From: a virus
DNA length: 34,310 bases
Direction: 5' to 3' (one strand)
Virus record (IMG/VR): IMGVR_UViG_3300033892_000029
Positions within the stretch are counted from its first letter, which is position 1; each line of letters starts with the position of its first letter. The position numbers and the translations under genes were made by a program. A model generated the notes under the pieces. The model saw only the letters and a list, made by a program, of their open reading frames with translations, ran no database searches and was not told the DNA's origin. This document shows, piece after piece, positions 2,960-16,629 of this stretch.

Positions 2960-3075
2960 GCATTATTTCCCTTCCATCCGTGGCCTTTCCCCTTGTTTCG
3001 TCCATCGATTCAGCATTCGTTCACCCGATTGCCGCCAAGCGCTTCCTCTATTGCTCCATCCATGGCTTGAGCTAA

Positions 3076-3095
3076 GGATGAATCCTTTCTATGCA
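3076..3095. repeat. 20-bp direct repeat, copy A (GGATGAATCCTTTCTATGCA)
   Basis: 17/20 identical to 3301-3320. Each copy has a CCATGG close to its left side. Confidence 0.7.
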
Positions 3096-3300
3096 TGGAC
3101 CATCAATGACTTAGCAAGGTTACCGTGTGTGTGTAGCAGCAGTAGGGTAGTGAGTTCTAACACTGTAACTCCTGATCCATCTTCTTCCATATCATAGTTA
3201 AATCATCACTCGCATAAGCTGTAACATTTGACTAATCCATAGATATAGCTTAAGAAGCGACAGCGGCTGTAGCATGAGTTCAAGCACAGGATGTAGCCAT

Positions 3301-3320
3301 GGATGGATCTTTTCTGTGCA
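3301..3320. repeat. 20-bp direct repeat, copy B (GGATGGATCTTTTCTGTGCA)
   Basis: 17/20 identical to 3076-3095, 225 bp away. The two copies bracket the AT-rich island. Confidence 0.7.
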
Positions 3321-3592
3321 GGAGGACAGCTCAGGCGGGAAGAGGCTGGAACGCGCTGTGAGCGTCTGTGCGGCGTTTCCAGCGTGGGGTCGGTAGGGTG
3401 GTAGCGGCCCCCTCCCTGGCTGGCGCTCTGGATCGATCCTGATCGGTTCCAGCCCCCTCCGATCCCTCCCTTCCGACTCCCGACCCGGCGCTTTGGGCTT
3501 TTCGCTCGATCAACAGAGAGGCTCCACCCTCCCCCACCCCAGGAAAAAATTCGGTGGAGAGGGCTTAATCACCCTCCCCCTTTCTGGCACCC

Positions 3593-3632
3593 CCGTAGCT
3601 AACGAAGCTCCCCATAGGCGTCTTAGCTACGG
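3593..3632. promoter_or_regulatory. Inverted-repeat pair 1: CCGTAGCTAA-20 nt-TTAGCTACGG (candidate operator, pac-type site or RNA hairpin)
   Basis: Perfect 10-bp arms at 3593-3602 and 3623-3632 with an exact 20-nt spacer. The right arm extends as TTAGCTACGGACCCC. Confidence 0.6.
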
Positions 3633-3666
3633 ACCCCATGGGCGGGAACAGTGGGTCAAAAACCCT

Positions 3667-3706
3667 CCGTAGCCAACGGATACAAAAATGGACGGCTTAG
3701 CTACGG
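3667..3706. promoter_or_regulatory. Inverted-repeat pair 2: CCGTAGCCAA-20 nt-TTAGCTACGG
   Basis: Arms at 3667-3676 and 3697-3706 (one mismatch), again with an exact 20-nt spacer and the same TTAGCTACGGACCCC extension. Offset from pair 1 is 74 bp. Confidence 0.6.
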
Positions 3707-3813
3707 ACCCCTGGGATGGATCGGTGACCCGGAAATCCCACCCCTTATCGGGCCATGGCTGACGCAGTAAGCTTGACCTGCAGCCGGCCTGTTGCTGGCG
3801 CGGGAGAAGAAAC

Positions 3814-4289: not shown

Positions 4290-4615
4290 AAACCGCCGCC
4301 GGTATCCGCGCCTATATCCGCCGTTCCCGGGTGCCGATCGCCGACTGGGCGCGGGCGCTGGGCGTGCACTACACCTCGCTCTACCGCATGGTCTGCGGGG
4401 TGAGCGGGATGCAGGAGGGGCCCTTGATGCGGCGCGCCATGTGGATGGTGCAGGCGCTGGAGGAAGGGCAGGCCCGCTGGGAGCGCAGCACGCTGCCCGA
4501 CGGCCATGGCGCATGGCGCATCCAGGGCCTGGCCTTCACGCCGACCACGATGGTCACCTACCGGGCCAATTTCCTCGGCGGTACGTTCCAGCGCATCGAG
4601 GGCGTCGAAACGTGA
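4286..4615 (+). CDS. HTH-containing small protein (109 aa); small-terminase/DNA-recognition candidate by position
   Basis: ATG at 4286 (ATGA overlap) in the frame of ORF 3992..4615. MKTAAGIRAYIRRSRVPIADWARALGVHYTSLYRMVCGVSG has a helix-turn-helix pattern. It lies immediately upstream of, and is translationally coupled to, the large terminase (GTGA at 4612-4615). The role is inferred from synteny only. Confidence 0.55.
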   Translation: MKTAAGIRAYIRRSRVPIADWARALGVHYTSLYRMVCGVSGMQEGPLMRRAMWMVQALEEGQARWERSTLPDGHGAWRIQGLAFTPTTMVTYRANFLGGTFQRIEGVET

Positions 4616-6417
4616 AGTTCCCTCGCCAGCAGTTCGAGACGTTCTGCAGCCGCCTGGTGCTGAACTCCAAGGAGCAGGGCCGGGTGCCGTTCCGGTGGAA
4701 CGGGGCACAGGTGCGTTTCGTGGATGAAATGGAAAAGGGCTTAGGCCGCGAGCAGCACAAGATCGTCGTGTGCAAGGCCCGCCAGCTGGGCATCACCACG
4801 ATGACGCTGGCGCTGGACCTGTTCTGGCTGTTCCGCCATCCAGGTACGCAGGGGGCGCTGGCGGTCAGCAACGAGTCGGTCCGCGACCTGTCGCGCAACA
4901 TCCTGACCAACTACCTGGACGGGTTGCCCAACGGCATGAAGGTGCCGGTGAAGATCGACAACCGCACCGAGATCCGTTTCACCAACACCTCGCGTCTGGC
5001 CCACATGATCGCCGGCGGCCGCAACTCCGGCGCGCTGGCTCGCGGCCAGGGTCTCAACTACGCCCACATGACCGAGATGAGCAGTTGGGCGGACCCGGAG
5101 GGGGTGGTGTCGCTGGATGCCTCGCTCGCCGAAACGCACCCCAACCGCCTCTACATTGCCGAGTCCACCGCGCGCGGGTTCAACGTCTTCCACGACATGT
5201 GGGAGGACGCCGAGCGCTCGCTCTCGACCAACGCGATCTTCATCGGCTGGTGGGCGAAGGAGGACTATCGCATGCCGCGCACCTCGCGGCTGTGGGATAC
5301 CTATGGACGCGCCCGGCCCAGCCGCGACGAGCAGGCGTGGGCACGCGAGGTGAAGAAGCGCTACGGCCACGAGATCACCCCCGAGCAGTTCGCCTGGTGG
5401 CGCTGGAAGTGGGCCGAATCGGGCGAGAGCCGCCTCCTGGTCGCCGAGTATCCCTGGACCGCCGACCAGGCCTTCGTCATGACCGGCGACCAGTTCTTCG
5501 GCGCGCAGACGCTCAAGAAAATCAAGGAAGCCGCGTTGCAGGTGCCGCGGCAGTGCTGGCGCTACGTGATCGGCCCGCGCTTCGAGGACACGGCGTTGGA
5601 GCCCGATGAGGACGGTCCGCTGTCGATCTTCGAGGAGCCGCGTTCGGACGCCGAGTACGTGATCGCCGCCGATCCGGCCTACGGGGAGAGCGAGTGGGCC
5701 GATCACTTCTGCGCCCAGGTGCTGCGCTGCGAGCGCGACCGCGTGGTGCAGGTGGCGGAGTTCAACTCTCCCGATTGCACCATGTACGGCTTTGCCTGGA
5801 TTCTTGCCCACCTGGCCGGCGCCTATTCCTCGATCGCCAAGCCGGCCACCCTGATCATCGAGCTGGGCGGCCCGGGGCGGGGCGTGCTGCAGGAGCTGCA
5901 GCGCATGCCCGAGCAGTACGCCGACCGCATCGACTCGCTCAGCCCCAGCGCGCAGCGGGCGCTTCAGAACCTGTTCGGTTCGATCCGCCACTACCTGTAC
6001 CGTCGCCCCGACAGCCTCTCCGGCGGCCGGCTGCTGCAATGGGAGACGACCTGGAAGACCAAGCAGATCATGATGAACCTGTTGCGCGACGGCATCGAGC
6101 GCGGCATGGTCACGGTCAACAGCCCCGAATGGCCCGAGGAGGCGCGCTACGTCACCCAGAACGGCAGCCGCATCCAAGCCGAAGGCCAGCACAAGGACGA
6201 CCGCGTGGTGGCGATGGCGCTGGGCGTGGTGGCCTGGCAGCAGCAGGTGCTGCCCGAACTCCTGGCCGCCCATGCCGAAGCCGGCTACGGCCGCGGGCCG
6301 GCCGCGCCGCTGGATCGCGCGGTGCACAACTGGCTGGACGGCATCCGCTCGGGCGCCGAGGATGCGCTCTGGTCCACGCCTTCCTACGGCTACGCATCCT
6401 GGGACGAGTTGCAGTAG
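4612..6417 (+). CDS. terL: Terminase large subunit (601 aa)
   Basis: GTG at 4612 in the frame of ORF 4441..6417. Walker-A-like VVCKARQLGITT, then LAHMIAGG...GQGLNYAHMTEMSSW, ESTARG, and a C-terminal nuclease-type HKDDRVVAMALGVVAW. The gene sits upstream of the portal. Confidence 0.88.
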   Translation: MKFPRQQFETFCSRLVLNSKEQGRVPFRWNGAQVRFVDEMEKGLGREQHKIVVCKARQLGITTMTLALDLFWLFRHPGTQGALAVSNESVRDLSRNILTNYLDGLPNGMKVPVKIDNRTEIRFTNTSRLAHMIAGGRNSGALARGQGLNYAHMTEMSSWADPEGVVSLDASLAETHPNRLYIAESTARGFNVFHDMWEDAERSLSTNAIFIGWWAKEDYRMPRTSRLWDTYGRARPSRDEQAWAREVKKRYGHEITPEQFAWWRWKWAESGESRLLVAEYPWTADQAFVMTGDQFFGAQTLKKIKEAALQVPRQCWRYVIGPRFEDTALEPDEDGPLSIFEEPRSDAEYVIAADPAYGESEWADHFCAQVLRCERDRVVQVAEFNSPDCTMYGFAWILAHLAGAYSSIAKPATLIIELGGPGRGVLQELQRMPEQYADRIDSLSPSAQRALQNLFGSIRHYLYRRPDSLSGGRLLQWETTWKTKQIMMNLLRDGIERGMVTVNSPEWPEEARYVTQNGSRIQAEGQHKDDRVVAMALGVVAWQQQVLPELLAAHAEAGYGRGPAAPLDRAVHNWLDGIRSGAEDALWSTPSYGYASWDELQ

Positions 6418-7391: not shown

Positions 7392-9065
7392 ATGCGCATC
7401 CCGAAGGCGCCGGCGGAACGGATCGACTGGCTGTACAGCACGCTCGCCCGCCTGCGTCGCTCGATGGACGACCGGCGCGCCAAGGCGCGCACGTGGCGCA
7501 GCTGGTACCTGCATGGCGCCCCGGAGTGGGGCGCGCGCTACAACATGATCTGCCCGCAGGTGAACACCCTGGCCGGCTACCTGTACGCGCCGCGCAGCGT
7601 GCGTTTCAGCCTCAACGCCGGGCCGGTGGCCAAGGCCGGCAAGATCGCCCTGTTCGAGACCGCCGCGGTGCGCCTGCGCACGCTGTGGAACGAGTCCTGC
7701 GCGGATGAGGCCTACAGCAACCAGACGCTCTGGAGCCTGGTCTATGGCTCGAGCTTCCTGAAGTTCCGCTGGGCCGAGGGCAAGCCGCGCTGCCTGCCGG
7801 TGGCGGCCTTTGACCTGGGCGTGTGGCGCGACGACCTGCCGGACCTGGAAGATCAACAGGCGATCCTGCACACCTATCGGCTGGATGGGGAGACCGTGCG
7901 CCTGTGGCTGGTCTCCGCCGGCATGCCCGGACCGGAGGTGGACGCGTGGATGCGCCGCTTGGGCAACGGCAACAGCGGCGAAAGCCCCAGCCGCGGCGCG
8001 GTTGCAGTGGGCCAGATGAACCCGATCGGGTGGTCCGGCGGCGTCTCGCAGGGCGTGGCCGGCGCGGTGACCGACTGGGGCAGCGTCAGTGCCGACTACG
8101 GCGGTGATTCGCCGACGCTGGAGATCGAGGAGATGTGGGTGCGCGACGATGCGACCCGCGACTGGCGCATCTTCCAGATCATCGAGAAGGACCTGATCCT
8201 GTCCGATCGGCCGAACGATTTCCTGCCCGAGCACCATCCGTTCGTCAAACTCACCCCGGACCCGGTGGATGAATGGTTCTGGGGCCGCTCGACGGTGGAG
8301 CAGCTGATTCCGCTGCAGGCCCTGCGCGAGAAGCGCATGAACCAGCTCGACCGCCTGTGCGCGCGCCAGGCCAACCCGCCGATGGTGGCCAGCGGCCTGA
8401 GCGGCGTGACCGACGAGAAGGCGGCGGCCGTGATGCGCCGCGGCGGCCTGCTGGGTTCCTCGCAGGTGCCCGGCGCCAAGATCGACCTGCTCACGCCGCA
8501 GGTCTCGGAAATCAGCTTCGCGCTGATCAACGACATCGACGCGATGTTTTCCAACACGCTTGGCCTCACCGACATGCTGCAGGGCCAATCCTCAGGCAAC
8601 GAGCGTGGCGGCGCGCACGCGCGGGCGATGATGGAAGCGGGCGCCAGCCGCCTGACGCGCCGGATGCAGAACGTGGAGCGCGCAGTGGCGGAAGGCGCCT
8701 CGCTGCTGATGGAGCTGGCCAAGCGCTACGACGACACGGTGCTGGTCGATGATGACGATCAGCGCTACCTCATGGCGCAGGTGCCGGAGGAAGCGATGGT
8801 GGAAGTGGCCGCGCATTCGGCCTCGCCGCTGTTCGCCACCCGCGCGCAGCAGGACGCCGCGCAGCTGATGGAGCTGGGCATCATCGACAAGACCGATTTC
8901 CTGGACCTGGCCGATCCGCCGATGTCCGAGGCGCTCAAGATGCGCATGAAGGCGCGCGACAAGCAGCACCAGAAGCAGGTCCAGCAGGCCATCCAGCAGA
9001 CCCCCGAGAACGACCGCTGGCAGCTGTTTACCAGCCTGCTGGGCCTCGGCAAGAAGCGCGCCTGA
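7392..9065 (+). CDS. Portal protein (557 aa)
   Basis: ORF track. The size, the position after the terminase and ahead of scaffold and capsid, and the acidic/basic helical C-terminus all fit. No search was run. Confidence 0.75.
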   Translation: MRIPKAPAERIDWLYSTLARLRRSMDDRRAKARTWRSWYLHGAPEWGARYNMICPQVNTLAGYLYAPRSVRFSLNAGPVAKAGKIALFETAAVRLRTLWNESCADEAYSNQTLWSLVYGSSFLKFRWAEGKPRCLPVAAFDLGVWRDDLPDLEDQQAILHTYRLDGETVRLWLVSAGMPGPEVDAWMRRLGNGNSGESPSRGAVAVGQMNPIGWSGGVSQGVAGAVTDWGSVSADYGGDSPTLEIEEMWVRDDATRDWRIFQIIEKDLILSDRPNDFLPEHHPFVKLTPDPVDEWFWGRSTVEQLIPLQALREKRMNQLDRLCARQANPPMVASGLSGVTDEKAAAVMRRGGLLGSSQVPGAKIDLLTPQVSEISFALINDIDAMFSNTLGLTDMLQGQSSGNERGGAHARAMMEAGASRLTRRMQNVERAVAEGASLLMELAKRYDDTVLVDDDDQRYLMAQVPEEAMVEVAAHSASPLFATRAQQDAAQLMELGIIDKTDFLDLADPPMSEALKMRMKARDKQHQKQVQQAIQQTPENDRWQLFTSLLGLGKKRA

Positions 9066-9079
9066 CACTCACCCAAAAA

Positions 9080-9118
9080 GAAGGCCCCGACACCCAAGGG
9101 GTAGATGTCGGAGCCTTC
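9080..9118 (+). terminator. Strong stem-loop just after the portal stop (possible terminator or processing site; no U-tract)
   Basis: GAAGGCCCCGACA (9080-9092) pairs with TGTCGGAGCCTTC (9106-9118): 12 of 13 bp around a 13-nt loop. A perfect GGAGAC-TTGC-GTCTCC hairpin follows at 9121-9136. Confidence 0.3.
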
Positions 9119-9556
9119 AAGGAGACTTGCGTCTCCAGCCGGTGAGGGCTATGCTCGTCCCGCGACGGACTTGCGGGACCCATCTTACCTCTTTTTTCGG
9201 GAACTGCAAGCCTGTCGCCGTCAAGACGCACGACAGTCGTGGGCCTGTATGGGCTGCCCGTCAGAGTACACCGAGGCGCGGAGCACACTCTCCGCGACCC
9301 TCGCCCCGGCGTTCCTCCAGCGACCGGGTAGAGCCGTGGCAAGTGACGTCGGCGTGAGCCGGCCCAGAGTCATGGCGAAAGGAATGGGGGCGTCCCGCGA
9401 CACGGGTTCCTTTCACCGGGCAGAGGTCCACTCTTTCTGCCAGGAACGAGAAGGGAATGAGTGACGATGACCGCTACGGTTTCTCCACCGGCCTAGAGCG
9501 CCGGATCGAGCAGAAGCCATAGGTCACGTCTGGGCAGACCGTGCCTCGAAAAAACC

Positions 9557-9586
9557 TTGACTTCTTGCGTGAACCGGTTCTAGAAA
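9557..9586 (+). promoter_or_regulatory. Candidate internal sigma-70-type promoter for the capsid gene set
   Basis: TTGACT (9557-9562), an 18-nt spacer, then TAGAAA (9581-9586), preceded by an A-tract. This would give a leader of about 120 nt containing the 9664-9680 hairpin and AAGGAG at 9701-9706. Confidence 0.3.
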
Positions 9587-9712
9587 GGCGACAGTGCGGT
9601 GCCTTGGCATGCGCACGGGTTCCCCGTCAGGGGATGAAAGAGAACCAGGGTGATCTCTGAAAAGGTTCCACTTAGGAACCGTTCGTCCGCCCGTCAATCG
9701 AAGGAGAGCGTC

Positions 9713-9769
9713 ATGGCTCGCAAGTCGCATCGCAAGGCCCGCAAGGGCGGTCGCAAGGCCCGCAAGTAA
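9713..9769 (+). CDS. Micro-ORF encoding an 18-aa Arg/Lys-rich peptide (MARKSHRKARKGGRKARK)
   Basis: ATG at 9713 lies 6 nt after a strong AAGGAG. 10 of 18 residues are Arg/Lys, built from five x-CGC-AAG units. The stop overlaps the next ATG (TAATG). Confidence 0.45.
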   Translation: MARKSHRKARKGGRKARK

Positions 9770-9870
9770 TGGCAACCGCCATGCAAACGGGTGCGGCCAA
9801 GCGCAACATCAAGAAGGCCATCGCCGCGCGCAGTTCGGGCCGCAAGCCCACGCGCAAGGCGATGCGCTGA
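9769..9870 (+). CDS. Micro-ORF encoding a 33-aa basic peptide (MATAMQTGAAKRNIKKAIAARSSGRKPTRKAMR)
   Basis: ATG at 9769 is coupled to the previous stop; an alternative ATG lies at 9781. 10 of 33 residues are Arg/Lys. The TGA at 9868-9870 is in frame with the ATG at 9874, one codon later. Confidence 0.4.
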   Translation: MATAMQTGAAKRNIKKAIAARSSGRKPTRKAMR

Positions 9871-9873
9871 CGC

Positions 9874-10224
9874 ATGGCCACGCCGAATCTCGGCACGCTG
9901 TCGCAGCCGTTGCCCATGGGTGGGCAGACCCAGGGCGCGGCTGCGCCGGCACCGGCCACCAACCAAGCCTCGCCGGACGGCCAGACCGCGCTCTCGCGCG
10001 GCAAGGTCATGCAGGCGATCCAGGCGATCAGCACGGAACTGCCCAACTTCCCGGTCGGCTCCGAAGAGCACACCGCGCTGCTCGATACGGTGAAGAAGCT
10101 CGGCAAGTATTTCTCCGGCTGGAGCACGTCGGCCCAACCGGCACCCCAGACGCAACAGGCCGCCCAGCAGGTCGCGGGTTCGCCCGCCATGGGTGGCGCC
10201 CCGTCCCCTCAGGAGGCAGCCTAA
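9874..10224 (+). CDS. Hypothetical virion-module protein (116 aa)
   Basis: ORF track. Gln/Ala/Pro-rich ends around a helical core (GKVMQAIQAISTELPNFPVGSEEHTALLDTVKKLGKYF). Confidence 0.65.
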   Translation: MATPNLGTLSQPLPMGGQTQGAAAPAPATNQASPDGQTALSRGKVMQAIQAISTELPNFPVGSEEHTALLDTVKKLGKYFSGWSTSAQPAPQTQQAAQQVAGSPAMGGAPSPQEAA

Positions 10225-16449: not shown

Positions 16450-16629
16450 ATGCCCCTGCATCGTGGCACCTCACCGAAGACCGTTCGTCGCAACATCCGG
16501 GAATTTCGCACCGGCACCACCTACGCGCGCACGAAACGCAAGTACGGCGCGAAGGTCGCCAACCGTCAGGCCATCGCGGCCGCCCTGCATGAGAAGCGCC
16601 GTTCCGGGCGCAAAGGACATCGCACATGA
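16450..16629 (+). CDS. Small basic protein (59 aa)
   Basis: ATG at 16450 in the frame of ORF 16303..16629. MPLHRGTSPKTVRRNIREFRTGTTYARTKRKYGAKVANRQAIAAALHEKRRSGRKGHRT. From memory it resembles the DUF6496-type small proteins; unverified. Confidence 0.5.
   Translation: MPLHRGTSPKTVRRNIREFRTGTTYARTKRKYGAKVANRQAIAAALHEKRRSGRKGHRT

Follow-up and report, generated by a model that had tools for sequence, protein, structure and literature searches.

Bacteria and their phages encode large, ornate RNAs, among them GOLLD, ROOL and OLE, for which no biochemical function is known (PMC12286853, PMC5737381). Herein we analysed a gap of 647 nucleotides (nt) between the portal gene and the capsid operon of a podovirus-like, high-GC (~66%) phage genome of ~34.3 kb (IMG/VR record IMGVR_UViG_3300033892_000029; “the window” denotes the whole stretch of 34,310 nt that was analysed, which covers nearly all of this genome). 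The gap (9066-9712) is a composite of three independent units and not one 647-nt RNA: a predicted small RNA (sRNA) gene on the minus strand (unit 1), a structured RNA of ~320 nt, hereafter the core, which probably functions on the plus strand (unit 2), and a promoter-like element with a structured leader at the head of the capsid operon (unit 3). The core is like GOLLD, ROOL and OLE in being phage-borne, in measuring hundreds of nt, and in having many helices, a pseudoknot and highly conserved unpaired nucleotides. It differs from them in that no covariance model matches it, in its smaller size and GC-rich composition, in its occurrence in only 12 soil-phage genomes, and in its position within a head-morphogenesis operon, where it is paired with an antisense sRNA gene. 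To our knowledge, RNAs of more than 300 nt with a complex fold are rare beyond ribosomal RNA, RNase P, introns and the known ornate RNAs, and each such RNA has so far pointed to new biochemistry.

The sRNA and the core together, which we refer to as the cassette, also call to mind the antisense systems of plasmids and temperate phages. ColE1 RNA I (acting on RNA II), lambda OOP and P22 sar are antisense RNAs of ~100 nt with multiple stem-loops and with their own promoter and terminator. Like them, the predicted sRNA would be transcribed convergently with a longer RNA, structured or messenger, and would match a part of it with full complementarity. The cassette departs from these systems in that no promoter was found for the long RNA, in that it has no link to an origin or immunity gene and no sequence similarity to plasmids, and in that the stretch to which the sRNA is complementary precedes the structured core rather than falling within it. 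Of the ColE1 arrangement, the sRNA unit is present, while complementarity to a long RNA is conditional on read-through from the portal operon. For unit 3 the nearest described systems are lambda nut boxB and HK022 put, which are structured leaders just downstream of phage promoters. Similarly, unit 3 has 2-4 conserved hairpins, several of them of GNRA type, between a promoter-like element and a long structural operon, but unlike nut boxB and put it has no identified boxA, N or Q homologue.

A further comparison is offered by sX13, an sRNA with three stem-loops, each of which carries a 4C/5C loop motif (PMC3771888). sX13 was the best Rfam match on our sRNA, although a weak one (9078-9172, minus strand, 19.7 bits, E = 0.34, against a threshold of 50 bits), and no sX13 match was found in six homologous loci. 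The two RNAs share a length of ~105-115 nt, consecutive stable stem-loops and a CCCC apical-loop motif that could pair with G-rich ribosome-binding regions, and one relative was binned with a metagenome-assembled genome (MAG) of the Rhodanobacteraceae. The differences are that only one of the four loops of our sRNA is C-rich (that of the terminator), that the loop of its third stem-loop (SL3) reads GCAA and those of SL1 and SL2 vary, and that it is phage-borne whereas sX13 lies at the polA locus. The sRNA is thus not a member of the sX13 family, but may be similar to it in mode of action.

A cassette inserted between the portal and capsid genes

Relatives of the phage were found by portal-based searches and came from IMG/VR, from MAG contigs binned to Rhodanobacteraceae and Terriglobales, and from JGI, ENA and Logan assemblies, forming a graded series from 86% to 40% portal identity (loci are denoted L001, L002 and so on). 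The longest contig in the portal cluster measures 34,324 nt. In all 12 loci with at least 72% portal identity, a gap of 550-650 nt aligned end to end with that of the window. The sRNA and core were present in every one of these 12 clade members and in none of the five outgroup loci (40-71% portal identity). Since the outgroups keep unit 3 and lack units 1 and 2 (the promoter-like element and the tiny open reading frame (ORF) behind it are retained, with a leader match also at 71%), the sRNA and core are, on this comparison, one co-inherited, clade-specific insertion between the portal stop and the capsid promoter-like element. In a profile search with nhmmer the 12 cassette loci and no others matched the core, which occurs a single time in the window, and exact-pattern scans with invariant core motifs (IMG/VR, JGI metagenomes) returned only known contigs and no other context. 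Three exact-motif matches, in L019 (within an integrase gene), L023 (within an RNase H gene) and L024, were rejected as chance, none of them having a profile match.

The sequence of the core is constrained to the same degree as that of its protein-coding neighbour. Invariant columns make up 49% of the ungapped columns in the core, compared with 51% in the portal gene overall and 16% at portal third codon positions, and no stretch of the portal gene stays invariant for more than 12 nt, whereas the core has one of 17 nt. Judged by these shares, purifying selection on the core is as strong as on the portal protein.

What is found at the insertion site varies among the relatives without the cassette. 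The site is empty in L014 (5678-5690), where the promoter-like element begins 14 nt past the portal stop; L010 (5680-5856), L015 (5697-5852) and L011 (6870-7022) have there a gene for a basic protein of ~55 residues (motif ..KQAIAIAYA..); and L013 has a minus-strand HTH_36 gene (5053-5766). From these alignments, the junction between portal and capsid promoter is a variable, moron-like insertion site. The window encodes a homologue (61% identity) of the small basic protein elsewhere, at 16450-16611, which implies that this gene has moved within the structural module. In two cassette loci an extra ~40 nt lie between the core and the promoter-like element (L001 ~8090-8135, L008 ~6095-6140), and the L001 copy holds a second CTTGAC and a GTCAAG inverted repeat.

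What this comparative evidence shows is the division into three units with their boundaries, how the core folds, and that sRNA and core are inherited together; the three-unit explanation as a whole, with the mechanism proposed below included, we judge somewhat better than an even call, and it is the structural and compositional description that carries most of this confidence. The first-pass annotation, which was made from the letters of the window alone, had proposed one candidate large structured RNA in a 647-nt gap. The gap itself was correctly delimited, as the portal ORF ends where stated and a Shine-Dalgarno sequence (SD) and ATG follow (Table 1). The candidate RNA survives as the core, which belongs to no known family, and not as one RNA of 647 nt; of the first ~490 nt, which had been left unexplained, the initial ~140 nt (9073-9209) belong to a distinct predicted sRNA gene that runs the other way and 9217-9533 are the core. 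A lesson for annotation is that a single-looking intergenic gap in a phage late operon may conceal three units on two strands.

Covariation supports a pseudoknotted core

The core was modelled comparatively on an alignment (A3) of 12 sequences, 11 of them distinct, and comprises about ten helices (Table 1). The model has 60 pairs, for which 96.9% of the cells are canonical and 16 pairs are changed on both sides. This covariation among the homologous gaps exceeds both of our controls: 0 of 500 shuffles reached the observed paired percentage, double-change count or covariation score, and pairing fell to 34-45% when partners were slid by 1-3 columns. The pseudoknot, which joins the internal loop of helix F to the 3' limit of the core, occurs in four haplotypes (CCAGA/UCUGG, CCAGC/GCUGG, CCAAG/CUUGG and CCAAA/UUUGG) that are all Watson-Crick, with 100% of cells paired, and is proven by covariation within this set of sequences. 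Helix I is likewise variable (UGAUCG/CGAUCA, UGAUCC/GGAUCA, UGGUGG/CCAUCA); it was misaligned by MAFFT and is clear on the ungapped sequences. In the 57-nt block at the 5' end of the core, loop and bulge positions are fixed as well. We regard the core as a genuine candidate for a previously undescribed structured RNA, of uncommon size and complexity, from 12 genomes of uncultured soil phages.

Two hairpins that had been drawn by eye in the first-pass annotation can be compared with this model. The one at 9272-9303 corresponds to helices C and D and is backed by compensatory changes. The one at 9405-9447 is correct in so far as it takes in one side of helix H, the 5' strand, for which compensatory changes back the pairing with 9450-9458, and the rest of it is a hairpin inserted in the window only. 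This window-specific insertion (9419-9447) forms a GGCAGA..TCTGCC hairpin in the loop of helix H, and a second one (9473-9520) extends the loop of helix I by ~48 nt; together they show, at the sequence level, that the loops of helices H and I tolerate added sequence. A second pseudoknot stem, GUGAU (9343-9347) with AUCAC (9523-9527), was rejected, as its topology is strained and it could not form together with helix I, which is well supported; its single compensatory change, in the window, is left unexplained.

A predicted sRNA gene on the opposite strand

Unit 1 is a predicted minus-strand sRNA gene with its own promoter and terminator (9073-9209). The hallmarks of an independent sRNA gene were found, namely conserved -35 and -10 hexamers set 16-17 nt apart with a variable spacer, and a GC-rich hairpin with a U-run and compensatory changes. 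The promoter pattern TT[GA]NAN-N16-TANNNT is present in all 12 loci, a single time in each, and its spacer differs in sequence among them. It lies ~100 nt upstream of the terminator on the minus strand, in the least conserved part of the gap, where TTG..A and TA...T are the only invariant columns. A promoter scan returned it as the sole site in L003 (TTGAAA-16-TATCAT) and L002 (TTTACA-17-TAGAAT), each with 10/12 against 0.1 expected; the window copy is the weakest, at 7/12 by hand count, which is below the detection of the scan. The terminator was called by the terminator scan in the window, L003 and L002, it starts ~5-15 nt past the portal stop, and 11 of its 13 pairs are changed on both sides. 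On the plus strand this hairpin has an A-run before it and no U-tract, and it is the A-run that identifies it as an intrinsic terminator for the minus strand.

The transcript itself is also supported by its predicted structure. In an alignment of 12 homologues (A4), RNAalifold gave 20 of 29 pairs changed on both sides, the wobble pairs are G-U when read on the minus strand, and the single sequence folds at z = -4.84 relative to shuffles. The GCAA loop of SL3 is invariant in 12 sequences and its stem covaries, with a U-G pair on the minus strand in L016. By its position, the sRNA would be antisense to all plus-strand RNA that continues past the portal stop.

Table 1. Features in and around the gap between portal and capsid genes (window positions; promoters, transcripts and structures are predicted from sequence).
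Feature	Position	Strand	Description
Large terminase gene	4441-6417		In terminase/portal operon
SU10-type portal gene (Pfam SU10_portal)	7392-9065		Stop at 9065
Intrinsic terminator of sRNA	9070-9118	-	17-bp stem (9118 to 9080), invariant CCC(C) loop, then T-run
Predicted sRNA transcript	~9178 to 9073	-	~105 nt; four stem-loops: SL1 variable, SL2 ACCC..GGGU, SL3, terminator
SL3 of sRNA	9122-9137	-	GGAGAC-GCAA-GUCUCC, GNRA tetraloop on minus strand
Sigma-70-type promoter of sRNA	9182-9209	-	-35 TTGCAG (9209 to 9204), 16-nt spacer, -10 TAAGAT (9187 to 9182)
Core structured RNA	9217-9533	+	~320 nt, about ten helices; comparative model, alignment A3
Nearly invariant 57-nt block	9217-9273	+	GCCGTCAAGACGCACGA.AGTCGTGGGCCTG.ATGGGCTGCCCGTCAGA..CACCG
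P1	9217-9231/9389-9401		Alternative closing helix, competes with helix A; both nearly invariant
Helix A	9236-9243/9394-9401	+	Closing helix; curated model
Invariant hairpin	9245-9264	+	Curated model
Helix C	9272-9275/9300-9303	+	Compensatory changes
Helix D	9278-9295	+	Compensatory changes
Helix E	9305-9328	+	Curated model
Helix F	9334-9340/9369-9375	+	Encloses hairpin 9349-9363 (GUGA loop)
Pseudoknot strand B	9364-9368	+	CCAGA, in internal loop of helix F
Helix H	9406-9414/9450-9458	+	Compensatory changes
Helix I	9468-9472/9522-9526	+	UGACC with GGUCA; hand check on ungapped sequences
Pseudoknot strand B'	9529-9533	+	UCUGG; marks 3' limit of core
Capsid-operon promoter-like element	9556-9587	+	-35 TTGACT (9557-9562), 18-nt spacer, -10 TAGAAA (9581-9586)
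Spacer palindrome	9571-9580	+	GAACCGGTTC, GAAC-NN-GTTC; invariant
Structured 5' leader	9594-9712	+	Hairpins 9594-9616, 9622-9633, 9640-9657, 9664-9680, then SD
SD	9700-9708	+	GAAGGAGAG; precedes next start codon, ATG 9713
Tiny ORF, first gene past gap	9713-9769	+	MARKSHRKARKGGRKARK; 18 residues, 10 of them Lys/Arg
Second micro-ORF of capsid operon	9769-9870		33-residue basic peptide; overlaps the 18-residue ORF

The gap is non-coding and matches no known RNA family

The gap is non-coding on several grounds, i.e., frame-breaking indels, no codon periodicity, no conserved ORF and no protein homology. Searches of Pfam and PHROGs with every gap ORF on both strands, including the only long frame (9105-9464), gave no match, and open frames differ among the 11 homologous gaps, with shifted frames, in-frame stops and indels of 1, 2, 4 and 5 nt; the first-pass annotation was therefore right that the gap holds no convincing ORF. 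Taken by phase, invariant columns account for fractions of 0.58/0.44/0.44 in the core, compared with 0.58/0.78/0.16 for the portal codon positions. Two coding candidates were considered and rejected: a minus-strand ORF ending at an invariant TCA (~9221-9403), which shifts frame among relatives and is interrupted in L001 and L004 by in-frame stops, and a peptide from the invariant ATG at 9249, whose length and frame are not conserved and whose third positions are invariant in alignment A3.

Known RNA families were searched for as well. The Rfam 15 covariance models, which cover GOLLD, ROOL, HEARO and OLE as well as group I and II introns, RNase P, riboswitches and small ribozymes, gave no match at gathering score in the whole window, weak chance-level matches only at E<=10 over 8900-9900, and no match on the gaps of six homologous loci, so the relation to GOLLD, ROOL or HEARO that had been suggested for this region finds no support. 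ARAGORN reported no transfer RNA and no transfer-messenger RNA (tmRNA), and the gap had no BLAST match among GenBank phages, PLSDB plasmids or E. coli genomes. Group I intron, RNase P, tmRNA, hammerhead, and cobalamin and ZTP riboswitches were each rejected, since their helix order does not fit and no covariance model matched. For a group I intron, the flanks of the cassette are non-coding and the portal gene is intact without it, so there is no interrupted gene; the Gly/Lys/Arg-rich tail and stop of the portal lie at the equivalent place in the cassette-less L013, L014 and L010.

Strand of the core and a proposed mechanism

We favour, with good confidence and short of proof, that the core functions on the plus strand. 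Read on this strand, variable core hairpins show loops of GNRA type (GUGA/GCGA, with GGAA for the hairpin inside helix I), unpaired columns are A-rich (A/(A+T) = 0.66) and paired columns have an excess of G and U, invariant G-U pairs occur inside core helices, and the window has a C-G to G-U double change at core pair 137-174. The same core pairs are canonical in 96.9% of cells on the plus strand versus 84.1% on the minus strand, a comparison that is biased because the helices were picked from plus-strand predictions. Scans of the window, L002 and L003 found neither a minus-strand promoter right of the core nor a plus-strand terminator left of it.

As a tentative proposal, with well under an even chance of being right in full, the core would be a partner-binding domain on a read-through late transcript and the sRNA its cis-antisense regulator. 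No consistent -35/-10 pair for a plus-strand core promoter was found between the sRNA promoter and 9217. Since the core has no promoter of its own and no plus-strand terminator follows the portal, it would be made on a read-through transcript from the terminase/portal operon and would then fold to a compact domain. Its invariant single strands would bind a conserved trans partner, as the nearly invariant 57-nt block implies, and this could be a protein, or else an RNA of the phage or its host. Over the ~105 nt that directly precede the core, the read-through transcript would be perfectly complementary to the convergent sRNA. The sRNA would set the amount of core RNA and its 5' end, either by forming a duplex that is cleaved in the manner of RNase III or by interfering with transcription; it might possibly act in trans too, via its C-rich (CCCC) loop.

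The core has clean boundaries, a pseudoknot established by covariation and a 57-nt nearly invariant block, qualities that commend it as a candidate for functional study. The convergent sRNA gene, always co-inherited with the core, is a built-in genetic handle, and the relatives that have no cassette and retain the surrounding genes are natural knock-outs; given the host or a heterologous system, the handle and the knock-outs make the function of the core directly testable. A broader claim, that the core is a new class of large functional RNA, we consider improbable as things stand; it would then be either a ribozyme that processes the late transcript or an RNA with a part in packaging or the assembly of heads. 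If the head-assembly or packaging version were true, the core would be analogous in role, though not in sequence, to phi29 pRNA, and would be encoded between the portal and capsid genes, beside extremely basic micro-proteins. If it is a new class, the co-inherited antisense sRNA would be its dedicated regulator.

A number of observations weigh against the three-unit explanation and its mechanism. The core, folded as a single sequence (the 332-nt centre of the gap), reaches only z = -1.35 relative to dinucleotide shuffles; the hairpin density that the first-pass annotation had judged by eye is thus no better than chance, and the evidence for the fold is therefore comparative. The comparison draws on ~9-11 distinct sequences of one narrow clade, in which several helices never vary. 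Concerning the strand, the choice of helices from plus-strand predictions has been mentioned; in addition, one-sided changes are balanced for pairs predicted on both strands (~20 G-U vs 18 A-C), RNAalifold energies are alike on the two strands (-142.6 vs -140.1), and the closing helix P1 fits the minus strand slightly better. An unconstrained duplexfold search of the sRNA against the capsid-operon leader gave energies equal to those of shuffled controls, no partner, target or processing site was found, and transcripts, transcript ends and core strand are predictions from sequence.

Alternative explanations

The strand observations just listed bear directly on the reading in which the core lies on the minus strand and forms with the sRNA one minus-strand non-coding RNA of ~470 nt, or a nested pair, as a moron-like antisense unit. 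In its favour are the like energies, the fewer mismatches of P1 under minus-strand rules, the terminator beside the portal stop, which is the gap's only one and serves the minus strand, and the minus-strand gene that L013 has at the same site. However, no sigma-70-like minus-strand promoter was found right of the core in the three scanned loci, and the GNRA loops, A-rich junctions, invariant internal G-U pairs and C-G to G-U change read only on the plus strand; we hold this reading to be unlikely. The core could also be a large ribozyme, of the self-cleaving or self-processing kind, by which the polycistronic late transcript would be cut at the boundary of the portal and capsid operons. A pseudoknotted fold with long invariant unpaired stretches is typical of catalytic cores, and the core sits at an operon boundary without a terminator, yet no ribozyme family was matched by Rfam in the window or the six homologous loci, and no cleavage-site motif was recognised, the hammerhead-like CUGAAUGAG being placed within helix H. 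The case is one of inference, and we rate it as quite unlikely.

Replication control of the ColE1 kind would make the long plus-strand RNA a primer precursor and the ~105-nt sRNA its RNA I-like inhibitor. The architecture invites this comparison, as a multi-stem-loop antisense RNA with its own promoter and terminator is complementary to the sequence just 5' of a long structured RNA, and no DNA polymerase or primase was recognised among the scanned proteins. It is nonetheless very improbable, given that neither a plus-strand promoter for the long RNA nor a conserved motif was found in the portal 3' end or gap, that there is no similarity to any plasmid replicon, that close relatives replicate without the cassette, and that a better origin candidate exists at 2960-3813, which is low in GC, non-coding and flanked by divergent gene blocks; the cumulative GC skew has a maximum and not a minimum at the gap, a weak signal in the opposite direction. 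The conservation might also reflect an element acting as DNA, for instance a region bound by a regulator, a site of packaging or recombination, or a signal for single-strand initiation, in keeping with the 57 invariant bases that include loop positions, the CTTGAC motifs in inverted orientation on both sides of the core and the partly ambiguous strand signal. Sixteen compensatory pairs and a four-haplotype Watson-Crick pseudoknot would be unexpected for sites in duplex DNA, however, and iterons and repeats are absent, as is any second match in the genome, which makes a DNA element a very unlikely account. Finally, the readings of the first-pass annotation, by which the whole 647 nt would be one large RNA of the GOLLD/ROOL/HEARO kind or a decayed gene, agree with a gap that is hairpin-rich and conserved in its entirety, but we find them scarcely credible: promoter and terminator signals and strand-specific wobbles split the gap into units on opposite strands, its 3' third occurs alone in relatives, Rfam gives no match, and decay is excluded by purifying selection, about half of the ungapped core columns being invariant as in the portal gene.

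Promoter-like element and leader of the capsid operon

Unit 3 begins with a promoter-like element, CTTGACTT..TGCGTGAA..GGTTCTAGAAAG, that does not vary within the clade and occurs only once in the genome. The motif noted at 9557-9586 in the first-pass annotation is thus real, although a strict sigma-70 scan does not call it because its -10 hexamer lacks the final T (T6). Equivalent TTGAC(A/T)...TATAxx elements occur in relatives without the core. The invariant palindromic spacer together with a -10 hexamer of this kind suggests an operator or an activator-dependent promoter. In the leader behind it, the first hairpin covaries (pairs 633-647, 634-646 and 635-645 of alignment A2), several hairpin loops in homologues are GNRA on the plus strand (GAAA, GGAA, GCAA), and L013, which is without the core, still matches the leader profile. 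The promoter-like element and leader, which explain the last ~150 nt of the gap, are by this distribution ancestral and independent of the core.

The leader opens onto two overlapping micro-ORFs (Table 1). A MARK... peptide of 18-28 residues stands at the head of the capsid operon in every relative down to 40% portal identity, and this peptide may bind or condense nucleic acid.

Genome setting

GC content is 0.57-0.65 in the gap versus ~0.67-0.70 in the flanking genes, and a complementarity and repeat search of the gap against the rest of the genome returned chance 10-12-mers only. The contrast that had been drawn with tight gene packing everywhere else is not quite accurate: apart from the gap, the window has a second long stretch, at ~2960-3813 (GC ~57%), without an ORF of coding-like GC at third codon positions. 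This stretch lies between divergently oriented gene blocks and is likely an early control region or origin. Over the whole window, the cumulative GC skew is of small amplitude, peaking near 9 kb, at the gap, and reaching its lowest point near 17-18 kb; despite these extremes, the genes from 3.8 to 27.6 kb all share one strand.

In two relatives only, the capsid region carries further insertions, i.e., HNH_3 endonuclease genes (L008 7945-8331, L016 8136-8678) just upstream of a 331-residue gene. The latter probably encodes the major capsid protein, and the HNH_3 genes are probably mobile homing endonucleases.

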